NCBI GenBank assembly: GCA_963758635.1
Contig: CAVWWD010000004.1
Location: 224,001 to 288,000 of the forward strand
Reading direction: 5' to 3'
DNA: 64,000 bases
Source: an uncultured Candidatus Rokubacteria bacterium
GTDB lineage: Bacteria; Methylomirabilota; Methylomirabilia; Rokubacteriales; CSP1-6
The first letter of the stretch is position 1. Each line of letters opens with the position of its first letter. Made by a program: the position numbers and the translations under genes. The notes below the pieces were generated by a model. That model had not been told where the DNA came from and searched no databases. It saw only the letters and a program-made list of their open reading frames with translations. Shown here one piece after another: positions 16,533 through 21,419 of this stretch.

Positions 16533-18157
16533 ATGCGCCGGCGCGGGGCCGGGCTCGTGGTGGACGCGCTGGCCTCGGCCGGCGTGCGCCACCTCTTCTC
16601 GCTCTCCGGCAACCAGATCCTGTCGGTCTACGACGCGAGCATCGGCAGCGGGATCGAGATCATCCACACGCGGCACGAGGCCGCGGCCGTGCACATGGCG
16701 GACGCGTGGGGCCGCCTCACCGAGGAGCCCGGCGTGGCCCTGGTGACCGCCGGCCCCGGCCACCTGAACGCGATCTCCGCGCTCTACGGGGCGCGCATGG
16801 CCGAGTCCCCGGTGGTCTTCCTGTCCGGCCACGCGCCGCTCGGCCTCGCCGGCCGCGGCGCCTTCCAGGAGATGGACCAGGTCGGCGCGGCCCGGCCCGT
16901 GACCAAGGCGGCGTGGGTCGCCCGGGACGCCGCGGCGATGGGCGACGACATCGCCCGCGCGCTCCACCTCGCGCAGAGCGGCCGGCCCGGGCCGGTGCAC
17001 GTGAGCCTGCCGTCCGATCTCCTCGAACGCGAGGTCGACGCGCCCGCCGCGGCTCCCGCGCGCGAGGCGGGGGCCGGCGAACCGCCCGCCGCGCTGGGCG
17101 CCGCGATCCGCGATGCGCTCGACCTGCTGTCCGCGGCCGAGCGCCCGCTCGTGCTCGTGGGGCCCGCGATGGGCCGCGGCCGCCGATGGCGGACGGTGGA
17201 GGCGCTCTCGGAGGCCACCGGGATTCCCGCCCTCCTGATGGAGAGCCCGCGCGGCGTGAACGACCCCTGGCTCCACCTCGCGTCCCGATCCCTCGCCGAA
17301 GCGGACGTCGTCCTGCTCCTCGGCAAGCGGATGGACTACTCGCTGCGCTTCGGTGAGCCGCCCGCGTTCGCGCGCGAGTGCCGCTTCATCCAGGTGGACG
17401 CCGACGCCGACGCGCTGGCCGCCCCCGAGCGGCTCGCGCTCGCCATCGCCGCCGAGCCCGAGCGGGCGGCGGTCGAGCTGGCCGCGGCCGCCCGTTCCCG
17501 GTCGTGGGCGCGCCGCGACTGGGGCGACCGGGTCATGGCGGCGCGCCGCGGCGAGCCGGCGGGCTGGGACGAGCTGCGGCGCTCCACGCGCCGGCCCATG
17601 CATCCGCTCCGCGTCTGTGCGGCCATGCAGCCGCTCTTCGACGACGGCGCCATCCTGGTATGCGACGGCGGCGAGTTCGGCCAGTGGGTGCAGGCCGGGG
17701 CCGAGGCGCGGACGCGGCTGATCAACGGGCTTTCCGGGTCCATCGGGAGCGCGCTGCCCATGGCGGCAGCGGCGCGGCTGGCCGCGCCGGACCGCGCCGT
17801 GGTGGCCGCGCTCGGCGACGGGACGTTCGGCTTCCACGCCCTCGAGCTGGACACCGCGGCCCGCTACCGCCTCCCCATCGTGGCGGTGGTGGGCAACGAC
17901 GCCCGCTGGAACGCCGAGCACCAGCTCCAGATCCAGCAGTACGGGGCGGAGCGCACGGTGGGCTGCGAGCTCTCGCCGACCCGCTACGACGAGCTGGCGC
18001 GTGCCCTCGGCGCCCACGGCGAGCACGTGGAGGCGGCCCGAGGATCTCGAGCCCGCGTTGGCGCGCGCGGTGAAGTCGGGGCTGCCCGGCGTGCGTCGAC
18101 GTGGCGATCGACGGCGTGGCCGCGCCGACCTACGGTACGGCTCGAGCCGGGCATTGA
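16533..18157 (+). CDS. Thiamine-pyrophosphate-dependent enzyme (acetolactate synthase/IlvB-like); frameshifts near 18030-18095
   Basis: [24 protein letters not shown] and [11 protein letters not shown] motifs; TPP motif GDGTFGF...VVGND. Confidence 0.9.
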
Positions 18158-18549
18158 CCGGCCGCGACACCGCGACGCCCGCCGGGCCCCGGCCGGATCA
18201 GACCTGGCTCCTGTGGGACGGCGCCTGAGACCTCTGACGACGGTCCGTCGCTTGGGTCAAGCGACAAGACTCCGGTGATCGCGTCCACGCCGTGCCCTAC
18301 CAGGAGGCTCCGTGGCCGCCGATGACGGCCGAGCTCGAGCGGCAGTGCGCCCGCGCCGCCCACGTGATCACTCCCGACGGCCGGACGCTCCGCGCCGGAC
18401 GGGCCAGCCTCCACGTGATGGGCCTCGTGGGGTGGCGCCGCTTCGCCGCGGTCTTCTCGACGCCGCCCCTCGTCTGGCTGGTCGAAGCCGGGTACTGGAT
18501 CGTCGCGCGGAACCGGGGCTTCTTCGGCCGCTTCCTCTTCCGCCGATGA
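18154..18549 (+). CDS. DCC1/DUF393 thiol-disulfide oxidoreductase, candidate selenoprotein with UxxU (TGA at 18226-18228 and 18235-18237)
   Basis: One continuous frame: TTG...WLLWDGA-TGA-DL-TGA-RRSVAWVKRQD...VPYQ...YWIVARNR. Both TGAs sit at the Cys positions of the family DGxCxxC motif. The TTGA start overlaps the upstream stop. Confidence 0.85.
18242..18271 (+). promoter_or_regulatory. Candidate bacterial SECIS hairpin
   Basis: Perfect 8-bp stem GTCGCTTG/CAAGCGAC (18247-18265) with loop GGT, plus a lower stem GGTC/GACT. The loop lies 26 and 17 nt after the two TGAs. Confidence 0.7.
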
Positions 18550-18562
18550 GGTAGGGCTGATC

Positions 18563-19717
18563 GTGACCCAGGCCGATCAGCTGGCGCGATGGGTCGCGCT
18601 GGCGATGGCGGCGGGCTTCGCGCTCTCGCCCGGGCTGTGGGTCTCGACCCGCGCCTATCCGCTGGTGCCGGTGTCCGGCCGCTTGCCCCGCATCCCGTAT
18701 CCGGTCGACGTCGTCGCGTTCGGTGCGCTCTGGGCTCTCCTGGGCCTGATCGCGCTGGCGGGGGCCTTCGCGCCAGGCCTGCTCGCCTTCGTCGCGCTCG
18801 CCGGCGCGCTCAGCCTCTGGGATCAATCGCGATGGCAGCCGTGGTTCTACCAGTACGTGATCATGCTGGCGGCCCTCGGGCTCCACCCGTGGACCGGCGC
18901 GGCGCTCGACACGTGCCGGGCCATCGTGGCGGCCACCTACCTGTGGAGCGGCTTCCAGAAGGTCAACACCAGCTTCGCGCGCGTGACCTTTCCGTGGCTC
19001 GTCGCGCCGATGACCGAGCGGCTCCCGGTCGGGCTCGCGAGGACGGTCGCGTGGAGCGGGCCCGCGGTGGCGCTCGGGGAGGCGGCCATCGGCGTCGGAC
19101 TGCTCGTGGAGCCGCTCCGGGACGTGGCGGTGGTGGCGGCGGTGCTGATGCACGCGACCATTCTCTTGTGCCTGGGGCCGCTCGGCCACCGCGTCAACAC
19201 GGTCGTGTGGCCGTGGAACGTCGCAATGGCGGCGTTCGTCCTCGTCCTCTTCTGGCGGGCGCCGGACGTGTCGACCAGCCGGATCCTCTCCGTGGATCCC
19301 GGGGTGTTCCACGCGCTCGTGGTCCTGCTATTCGGCCTCCTGCCCGCGCTGAGCTTCGTGAACTGCTGGGACTCGTACCTGTCGGCCGCCCTCTACTCCG
19401 CGAATCTCAAGTCGGGCGTGATCTACCTGACCGAGGCGGGGCGGGCCGCGCTCCCGGTGGCCGTAGAGCGCTACGTGGAGCCCGGCGCGGACGGCCGGCT
19501 CGAGCTCTCGCTGTCGCGGTGGTCGTCGGGCGAGACCAACGTGCCCGTCTATCCGGAGGTGCGGGTCTTCAAGGCCCTCGCGCGGGAGGTTTGCCGGCAC
19601 GCGGGCGACGTCGAGCTGGTCGTGCGCTACCGCTCGCTCGCGCGCCTCGTCCGCCGGCGCTCGACGGCGGACCCCGGCGCGCGGGTGATCGTGCGCTACC
19701 GCTGCGGCTCGCTGTGA
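18563..19717 (+). CDS. Polytopic membrane protein, HTTM / vitamin-K-dependent carboxylase-like (DoxX-like core)
   Basis: Multiple TM helices; DQSRWQPWFYQY, YLWSGFQK, GEAAIG, MH and WDSYLS motifs. Confidence 0.6.
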   Translation: MTQADQLARWVALAMAAGFALSPGLWVSTRAYPLVPVSGRLPRIPYPVDVVAFGALWALLGLIALAGAFAPGLLAFVALAGALSLWDQSRWQPWFYQYVIMLAALGLHPWTGAALDTCRAIVAATYLWSGFQKVNTSFARVTFPWLVAPMTERLPVGLARTVAWSGPAVALGEAAIGVGLLVEPLRDVAVVAAVLMHATILLCLGPLGHRVNTVVWPWNVAMAAFVLVLFWRAPDVSTSRILSVDPGVFHALVVLLFGLLPALSFVNCWDSYLSAALYSANLKSGVIYLTEAGRAALPVAVERYVEPGADGRLELSLSRWSSGETNVPVYPEVRVFKALAREVCRHAGDVELVVRYRSLARLVRRRSTADPGARVIVRYRCGSL

Positions 19718-20759: not shown

Positions 20760-21419
20760 TCAGCGCGGCTGGGGCACGATCCGGATGTAGGGCTTCGGCG
20801 ACTTCCAGCCGCCCGGGTACTGCTTCTTCGCCTCCTCGTCCGACACCGCCGGGACGATGATCACGTCCTGGCCCTGCTTCCAGTTCACCGGCGTCGCCAC
20901 CTTGTGCTGCGCGGTCAGCTGGCAGGAGTCGAGCAGCCGCAGCACCTCGTCGAAGTTCCGCCCGGTGCTCATCGGGTACGTGAGCATGGCCTTGATCTTC
21001 TTGTCCGGCCCGATCACGAAGACCGAGCGGACCGTCGCGTTGTCCGCGGCGGTGCGGCCCTGCGCGGCGCCCGCCGTCTCCGCCGGGAGCATGTCGTAGG
21101 CCTTCGCCACCTTCATCTCCGGGTCGCCGACCAGGGGGTAGGTGAGCGCGTGCCCCTGGGTCTCCTCGATGTCCCTGGACCACCGCTCGTGATCGCTCAC
21201 CGAGTCCACGCTGAGGCCGAGGATCTTGCAGTTGCGCCGGTCGAACTCGGGCTTGAGACCGGCCATGTAGCCGAGCTCGGTCGTGCACACGGGCGTGAAG
21301 TTCTTCGGGTGGGAGAACAGGATCGCCCATCCGGTGCCGATCCACTGGTGGAAGTCGATCCGTCCCTGGGTCGTGTCCGCAGTGAAGTTGGGGGCCTCGC
21401 CGTTGATCCTGAGTGCCAT
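20760..21419 (-). CDS. 1-Cys peroxiredoxin (Prx6 subfamily)
   Basis: FSHPKNFTPVCTTE, YPMSTGRNFDEVLR and VATPVNW motifs; GGAGGT RBS. Confidence 0.95.
   Translation of the reverse strand: MALRINGEAPNFTADTTQGRIDFHQWIGTGWAILFSHPKNFTPVCTTELGYMAGLKPEFDRRNCKILGLSVDSVSDHERWSRDIEETQGHALTYPLVGDPEMKVAKAYDMLPAETAGAAQGRTAADNATVRSVFVIGPDKKIKAMLTYPMSTGRNFDEVLRLLDSCQLTAQHKVATPVNWKQGQDVIIVPAVSDEEAKKQYPGGWKSPKPYIRIVPQPR

Follow-up and report, generated by a model that had tools for sequence, protein, structure and literature searches.

A single SECIS-like hairpin likely serves two UGA codons in a predicted DCC1-like selenoprotein gene of a Rokubacteria bacterium

Descriptions of bacterial SECIS elements usually assign one to each UGA, and SelL is said to be a UxxU selenoprotein with a diselenide. 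In the accessible sections of a 2026 review, the bacterial SECIS is portrayed as an in-frame hairpin 3' of the UGA, which is bound by SelB and whose loop mostly lies 16-37 nt away (PMC13188914). The bSECISearch consensus given there comprises a loop of 3-9 nt, a stem of 4-16 bp, an early loop G, the spacing of 16-37 nt and an energy of -7.5 kcal/mol or lower (PMC13188914, Fig. 2). For the UxxU Group 4b [NiFeSe] hydrogenases, a 2026 paper describes conservation of the SECIS core in UxxU as well as CxxU forms, raises a single downstream SECIS as a possibility and states that the decoding of UxxU motifs is open (PMC13582414). Thus, neither the idea of a single SECIS for two UGAs, which was proposed for these hydrogenases, nor the UxxU motif is new, since the latter is known from three or more other families of bacteria, namely a Prx-like thiol:disulfide oxidoreductase (PF00578), the NF041115 metal-binding protein and the FmdB family (TIGR02605) (PMC13188914, Table 1).

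The window analyzed here, i.e., the whole stretch of 64,000 nt, belongs to the assembly GCA_963758635.1 of an uncultured Candidatus Rokubacteria bacterium (contig CAVWWD010000004.1, positions 224,001 to 288,000, forward strand). It harbors a short gene with two in-frame TGA codons 9 nt apart, followed by potential hairpins (window coordinates):

18154..18549, + strand: DCC1-like gene, 131 aa with the TGA codons read through; PF04134 (former DUF393) thiol-disulfide oxidoreductase with the motif DGA-U-DL-U
18226..18228, + strand: first in-frame TGA, predicted Sec25, at the first Cys of CxxC; TGA in 66 of 142 close homologues, TGC or TGT in the rest
18235..18237, + strand: second in-frame TGA, predicted Sec28, at the second Cys of CxxC; TGA in 53 of 142 close homologues, TGC or TGT in the rest
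18238..18250, + strand: alternative hairpin CGACG-GTC-CGTCG, 5 bp, -4.0 kcal/mol, pair probability 0.03
18247..18265, + strand: main hairpin, predicted SECIS, 8 Watson-Crick pairs, 3-nt GGU loop (18255-18257), -10.1 kcal/mol
18346..18348, + strand: third conserved cysteine, Cys65; retained by 139 of 142 close homologues and invariant in a separate homologue alignment

With U read as C, the product matched the Pfam profile PF04134 (E 7.8e-14; 53.3 bits versus a cut-off of 27.8) and no other Pfam family, while no NCBIfam model was hit at E values up to 0.1. The DxxCxxC motif is present as D22-x-x-U25-x-x-U28, and a full-length Cys homologue showed 69% identity over 118 aa. TTG, which overlaps the TGA stop of the upstream gene, is the probable start codon, judging from this overlap and from third-position changes in close strains (10 of 11 substitutions inside the gene affected third codon positions). 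Translation would end at the TGA at 18547-18549. In an AlphaFold model (pLDDT 83.5) the motif resides between the first strand (residues 17-21) and a helix (26-38). The modeled fold matched largely GST N-terminal domains and thioredoxin-fold proteins, though weakly (best Z 5.8, rmsd 2.8, 73 aligned residues); a Foldseek search gave no match at E below 0.001, and a sequence search among solved structures revealed no relative at E up to 1. We predict the protein to be a selenol/diselenide oxidoreductase of the thioredoxin-like type with a UxxU active site, in which Cys65 may act as a resolving or second redox residue.

Both TGA codons and the whole segment 18226-18265 were found without any difference on short-read contigs from two other studies, and the TGA pair is thus not an assembly error. 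Contigs from RNA libraries matched positions 18290-18609, not the TGA codons; as they may originate from DNA, they are no sign of transcription. A scan for promoters and terminators disclosed nothing. The gene upstream (window 16533-18157, + strand), which by its motifs may encode a thiamine-pyrophosphate-dependent enzyme, contains frameshifts near 18032 and 18084-18091. These are absent from the independent contigs and are thus assembly errors; similar breaks exist in selA and selD. A membrane protein of 384 aa is encoded 13 nt after the DCC1-like gene (18563-19717, + strand); it had no Pfam or NCBIfam match, and a homologue of it lies beside a DCC gene in one other of 211 loci (L138). A 1-Cys peroxiredoxin gene (AhpC-TSA and 1-cysPrx_C domains; 20760-21419) is situated 2.2 kb downstream on the opposite (-) strand. 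Conserved neighbors that might hint at the function were not found across lineages.

A preliminary description of the locus had reported a perfect stem with a G-led loop at 18247-18265, at distances of 26 and 17 nt from the TGA codons, and the sequence bears this out. From the first TGA it is 18 nt to the stem and 26 nt to the loop; from the second, 9 and 17 nt, respectively. Upon folding of the region, the main hairpin appeared in both the MFE and the centroid structure with pair probabilities of 0.93-0.97, versus 0.02-0.03 for the alternative hairpin at 18238-18250. Its loop (3 nt) and upper stem (8 bp) lie within the consensus limits of 3-9 nt and 4-16 bp, G occupies the first two loop positions (GGU), both spacings fall into the range of 16-37 nt, and its energy of -10.1 kcal/mol (calculated by ViennaRNA on the hairpin alone, not by bSECISearch) is below the -7.5 kcal/mol threshold. 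The G-led loop, which had been put forward as a SECIS sign, is present, but it says little by itself: the first loop G is the third position of a Trp codon and is found in all 69 TGA-bearing genes as well as in 69 of the 73 Cys genes, and so it does not discriminate between them. Similarly, the proposed departure from the codon bias exists, as six of 15 codons in 18238-18282 end with A or T versus six of 103 elsewhere in the gene (p=0.0009). The pairs of the main stem, however, explain only GCT at 18250 and CGA at 18262, which are rare codons (3% of Ala and 5% of Arg codons) placed where the stem needs them, while the in-frame codons GGT at 18274 and GAT at 18277 fall outside both hairpins. 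The folding energy of the 81-nt region was unremarkable compared with shuffled sequences (z=0.07) and was dropped as evidence for a SECIS. When 4000 TGA triplets were picked at random from the host genome, 16.3% were followed by some SECIS-like hairpin and 3.75% by one with at least 8 bp and at least as stable as -10.1 kcal/mol. An Rfam scan of the window gave no match. On this one sequence the hairpin is thus modest relative to chance, and the excess over chance rests on its conservation only.

For a comparison of relatives, 211 loci were collected, 205 of which contained the motif, corresponding to 167 distinct sequences. After removal of 20 distant Cys forms (including L026 from genome G023) and of five sequences detected solely through a DNA pattern in which the hairpin was obligatory, 142 close homologues were analyzed: 50 UxxU, 16 UxxC, 3 CxxU and 73 CxxC, proportions that are not natural frequencies because one seed pattern demanded Cys at the second site. 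One CxxC row (L058) stems from an unpublished genome (G120), and no claim depends on it; the CxxU group consists of three metagenome contigs without host context. In 69 distinct genes TGA occurs at the two Cys positions only, and the frame is intact downstream. According to their record titles, these genes belong to at least six phyla (labeled Rokuibacteriota/Methylomirabilota, Myxococcota, Armatimonadota, Tectimicrobiota, Chloroflexota and Planctomycetota).

The main stem turned out to be conserved in the UGA forms and lost in the Cys forms. At least five contiguous pairs were present in 65 of the 69 TGA-bearing genes (50/50 UxxU, 12/16 UxxC, 3/3 CxxU) but in only two of the 73 CxxC genes. 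The same difference was seen among genes encoding the same AW[VIF][KR] peptide (61/64 with TGA versus 1/14 with Cys), and a scan of all loop positions identified the 18247-18265 register as the only one conserved in UxxU genes. A tree was calculated with the motif and hairpin codons removed, and disjoint TGA/Cys pairs were taken over all of its branches. Approximately 16 of the 18 pairs differed as expected, and none showed the reverse difference; this pairing gives weaker support than a strict test, which, confined to strongly supported branches, yielded only three pairs (one in favor, two without difference) and had no power.

The preliminary description had suggested examining covariation and had regarded an equal presence of the hairpin in Cys homologues as an argument against a SECIS. 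No such equal presence was observed, and the stem does covary. For 51 of the 69 TGA genes, aligned without gaps after removal of the other 18 (close duplicates plus four loci on the minus strand), 93.1% of the cells were paired and the covariation score of 0.298 was reached by none of 500 shuffles, while registers slid along the alignment were paired to 15-41%. Double changes occurred in four of the eight pairs. In 33 genes the Ala codon GCT accompanies the Lys codon AAG, and in 29 GCC accompanies the Arg codon AGG, but the combination of GCC and AAG does not exist; the swap thus replaces a U-A by a C-G pair at the cost of a Lys to Arg exchange. Compensatory changes are few, amounting to two and five changes on the tree for the two main pairs. 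RNAalifold predicted seven of the main-stem pairs on the TGA genes and no other structure, and neither this program nor the loop-position scan found a conserved lower stem beneath the hairpin.

Genes with one UGA provide a natural single-site control, as the hairpin occurs with either UGA alone. Since its position in these relatives does not depend on which UGA remains, one SECIS likely serves both codons. We put the probability at roughly four in five that the hairpin at 18247-18265 is the single bacterial SECIS which makes both upstream UGAs Sec, resulting in a predicted UxxU active site. Of the two arrangements initially envisaged, one SECIS for both codons is thus well supported by a hairpin that tracks TGA, covaries and has the same position in UxxU, UxxC and CxxU genes.

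Some genes deviate from this pattern. The CxxC gene L149 retains the full hairpin, and four UxxC genes (L016, L126, L127 and L133) lack it. In the latter (L016, 1537-1596; L126, 945-1004; L127; L133), a 6-bp hairpin with a GGUC loop was noticed 17 nt after the single UGA, three codons further upstream. This register gives at least five pairs also in 17 of the 73 Cys genes, and the four exceptions correspond to about two events; the data are suggestive of a replacement SECIS in the four genes. Within this stretch, a single-base difference between L126 and its sister L039 switches from one of the two hairpins to the other. On the tree, which is a quick one with many open forks, UxxU, UxxC, CxxU and CxxC forms are interspersed.

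The host genome (6.17 Mb, 87% complete) contains selA, selB and tRNA-Sec together on contig C10 and selD on C3; frameshifts of the kind seen elsewhere in this indel-prone assembly interrupt selA and selD. UGA aligned with Cys, UGA in several genomes and selABCD in the host, the hallmarks of a selenoprotein gene, were all found. Each of the 35 other TGA-bearing genomes showed a sign of Sec usage, 33 by selA and two by a strong tRNA-Sec match. The background of selA was 1/60, 25/60 and 38/60 in phylum samples around one Verrucomicrobiota, one Myxococcota and one Armatimonadota genome, respectively. As selA was also detected in 41 of the 48 genomes with the CxxC form, it does not tell Sec forms from Cys forms and was rejected for this purpose. 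For CxxC homologues (L042-L123, genomes G109-G156), selA was observed in two of five Verrucomicrobiota genomes versus 1/60 in the phylum sample. By these distributions the DCC1-like subfamily appears to follow selenium use even without UGA. The frequency of selA in CxxC genomes, together with the interspersed states, suggests that lineages using Sec may repeatedly have reverted to Cys.

The main open rival to a UxxU product accepts the hairpin as a SECIS but assumes that one or both UGAs are translated as Cys by a SECIS-dependent tRNA-ReC (SelC*), or that ribosomes get past the second UGA through near-cognate read-through at a low level, so that UxxC, CxxU or mixed products would arise. Such tRNAs are reported to be enriched in genomes with UxxU hydrogenases, for which this possibility has been raised (PMC13582414). 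Cys is evidently tolerated at both sites, given the interspersed UxxC, CxxU and CxxC forms, and a further tRNA gene could have escaped from an assembly that is 87% complete. Against this, the host has one tRNA with a UCA anticodon (default settings), one RF01852 match and one selB over the cut-off, and no second selC copy was found by blastn; general tRNA, RF01852 and blastn searches of the 87% complete assembly, which are not SelC*-specific, thus gave no second selC-like tRNA. Extra UCA tRNA candidates from a relaxed ARAGORN run were discarded, being unsupported by Rfam RF01852. Exactly one tRNA-Sec match above 60 bits was present in 30 of the 35 TGA-bearing genomes and two in none. Moreover, the second TGA has been kept in 53 genes, probably without a clear benefit if it merely meant Cys. 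We therefore regard insertion of Cys as improbable, though it is the alternative that deserves most attention.

The preliminary description had also considered that two mutually exclusive hairpins act in turn, the one at 18238-18250 serving the first UGA and the one at 18247-18265 the second. The alternative hairpin does exist; it shares 4 nt with the main stem and starts 9 nt after the first TGA, just as the main hairpin starts 9 nt after the second. At least four of its five pairs were formed in 41 of 69 TGA genes versus 22 of 73 Cys genes (p=0.0007, uncorrected for kinship), and two shuffle measures were borderline (10/500 and 20/500). However, when complete pairing was demanded, the hairpin was found in 11 of 69 TGA genes (8/50 UxxU, 2/16 UxxC, 1/3 CxxU) and in 10 of 73 CxxC genes (p=0.81) and was hence not conserved with the UGA. 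Its percentage of pairing was reached by 104 of 500 shuffles, its middle pair was broken in 32 of the 51 aligned TGA-bearing genes, and disjoint pairs revealed no trend (1.3 versus 1.6). With four or more pairs in 30/50 UxxU and 9/16 UxxC genes it is not linked to the presence of two UGAs either, and 12 of the 16 genes possessing the first UGA alone keep the main hairpin at 26 nt. The structure fails two of the four consensus features, as its spacing of 14 nt is below the range of 16-37 nt and its energy of -4.0 kcal/mol (versus -10.1 for the main hairpin) does not reach -7.5, and its pair probability is low. The surplus in TGA genes probably results from a shared segment, as the 3' arm of the alternative hairpin doubles as the conserved 5' arm of the main stem. 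We judged the alternative hairpin to be a chance product of the Arg-Arg-x-Val-Ala codons, and a succession of two hairpins is very unlikely.

Still less probable is the explanation that the TGA codons are stops, created by pseudogenization or sequencing errors, and that the hairpin is a by-product of the VAWVKR peptide in a GC-rich genome. Indels in the neighboring gene, the unremarkable folding energy and the SECIS-like hairpins behind 16% of random TGA triplets would fit this assumption. It is largely refuted by the homologues, the covariation and the contigs: TGA is restricted to Cys positions in genes of at least six phyla whose frame continues intact, independent contigs contain both codons, and Cys genes with the same peptide form the stem in one case out of 14, the rare codons GCT and CGA being placed where the stem requires them. 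A genome-wide reassignment of UGA to Trp or Gly, which would make a SECIS needless and to which two in-frame TGAs within one short gene might point, was ruled out for practical purposes, since TGA aligns with Cys rather than Trp or Gly, the DCC1-like gene and its neighbors terminate in TGA, and default settings revealed a UCA anticodon in tRNA-Sec only.

If one SECIS serves both UGAs, decoding could proceed as follows. The SelB-GTP-Sec-tRNA complex would bind to the loop and decode the first UGA, from which the loop is 26 nt away. Three translocations later, the stem would still begin 9 nt beyond the second UGA and, lying ahead of the ribosome, would remain folded. The hairpin might then take up a second ternary complex for decoding of the second UGA at a distance of 17 nt, and only afterwards would the ribosome melt the stem. 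In 19 other selenoprotein candidates of the host, chosen as protein-like from many UGA-for-Cys hits of a genome scan, the best hairpins had loops (e.g., GUG, GUU, GGC) 16-26 nt after the UGA; because having a hairpin at 16-37 nt was a condition for their selection, the lower limit of this range is in part circular, which does not apply to the upper limit. Given this range, two UGAs 9 nt apart could be served in the registers 25/16 or 26/17 only. The main hairpin sits in the permitted 26/17 register, which would explain its fixed position. With little more than even confidence, we favor a scheme in which one in-frame SECIS loads SelB twice for a two-Sec (diselenide-forming) site and this double demand pins the 26/17 register, so that lineages which replaced the second Sec by Cys were freed and in at least two cases (L016; L126/L127/L133) swapped to a new hairpin at 17 nt. 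If true, the DCC family would constitute a natural mutational series mapping the reach of SelB on the ribosome.

The host appears to be rich in selenoproteins. Matches to Pfam or NCBIfam families were obtained for 18 of the 19 candidates, including UGSC, GrdA, GrdB, SelW-like, ArsC-like, TlpA-like and CMD/YciW proteins, and several UGSC, TlpA-like and CMD/YciW paralogues as well as GrdA and GrdB possess UGA and SECIS-like hairpins. In a DUF411 (PF04214) gene (L220; C3:879884-880336, + strand), the CGCC motif begins with a TGA at C3:880064, and a 9-bp hairpin with a GGC loop is located 21 nt downstream of it. DUF411, which is absent from Table 1 of PMC13188914 as far as accessible, is possibly another unlisted selenoprotein family. 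The gene L238 (C9:328104-328520, + strand) codes for a small thioredoxin-like protein with the motif YGAYW-U-PAC, had no Pfam or NCBIfam match and contains a GUU-loop hairpin 26 nt after the TGA; its product is a candidate selenoprotein.

Among the 120 database homologues listed, none contains U, and 53 lack the motif, most of them starting downstream of it; gene callers thus shorten such genes and remove the active site. PF04134, DCC and DUF393 were not found in the accessible text and Table 1 (119 families) of the 2026 review PMC13188914, nor in the main texts, as far as available, of BSepDB, deep-Sep and the GOS paper. We found no literature pairing the DCC1-like family with selenium, although BSepDB Table S2, Deng 2026 (groundwater candidates), Haft and Tolstoy 2025 and Shchedrina 2007 could already list it. 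The DCC1-like family is likely a predicted selenoprotein family missing from the accessible catalogue of PMC13188914 and would add a widespread member to the predicted selenoproteome. With only 131 codons and UxxU, UxxC, CxxU and CxxC versions, the gene offers a compact test of one SECIS for two codons and of the distance involved, and decoding by a single SECIS bears on the production of multi-Sec proteins in bacteria.

Compared with the bSECISearch consensus (PMC13188914, Fig. 2A, accessible part), the main hairpin is alike in its coding-region site 3' of the UGA, small G-led loop, 8-bp upper stem, spacing and energy; it differs in that one element is in range of two UGAs and in that no conserved lower stem was found. 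The UxxU Group 4b [NiFeSe] hydrogenases (PMC13582414, accessible part) likewise have two UGAs three codons apart, whereas the DCC1-like protein is unrelated and much smaller, no second selC-like tRNA was found in its host, and its subfamily displays UxxU, UxxC, CxxU and CxxC forms with one hairpin register. With the PF00578 Prx-like, NF041115 and FmdB proteins and with SelL it has in common that UxxU replaces a redox CxxC, but it belongs to a different family. Relatives by protein family are the Cys-type DCC1-like/DUF393/YuxK oxidoreductases (e.g., Arabidopsis DCC1; PMC7598583, accessible part), with which it shares the Pfam match, the position of the DxxCxxC motif and the predicted strand-helix layout of a putative thioredoxin-like fold, while the gene of the window has DxxUxxU instead.
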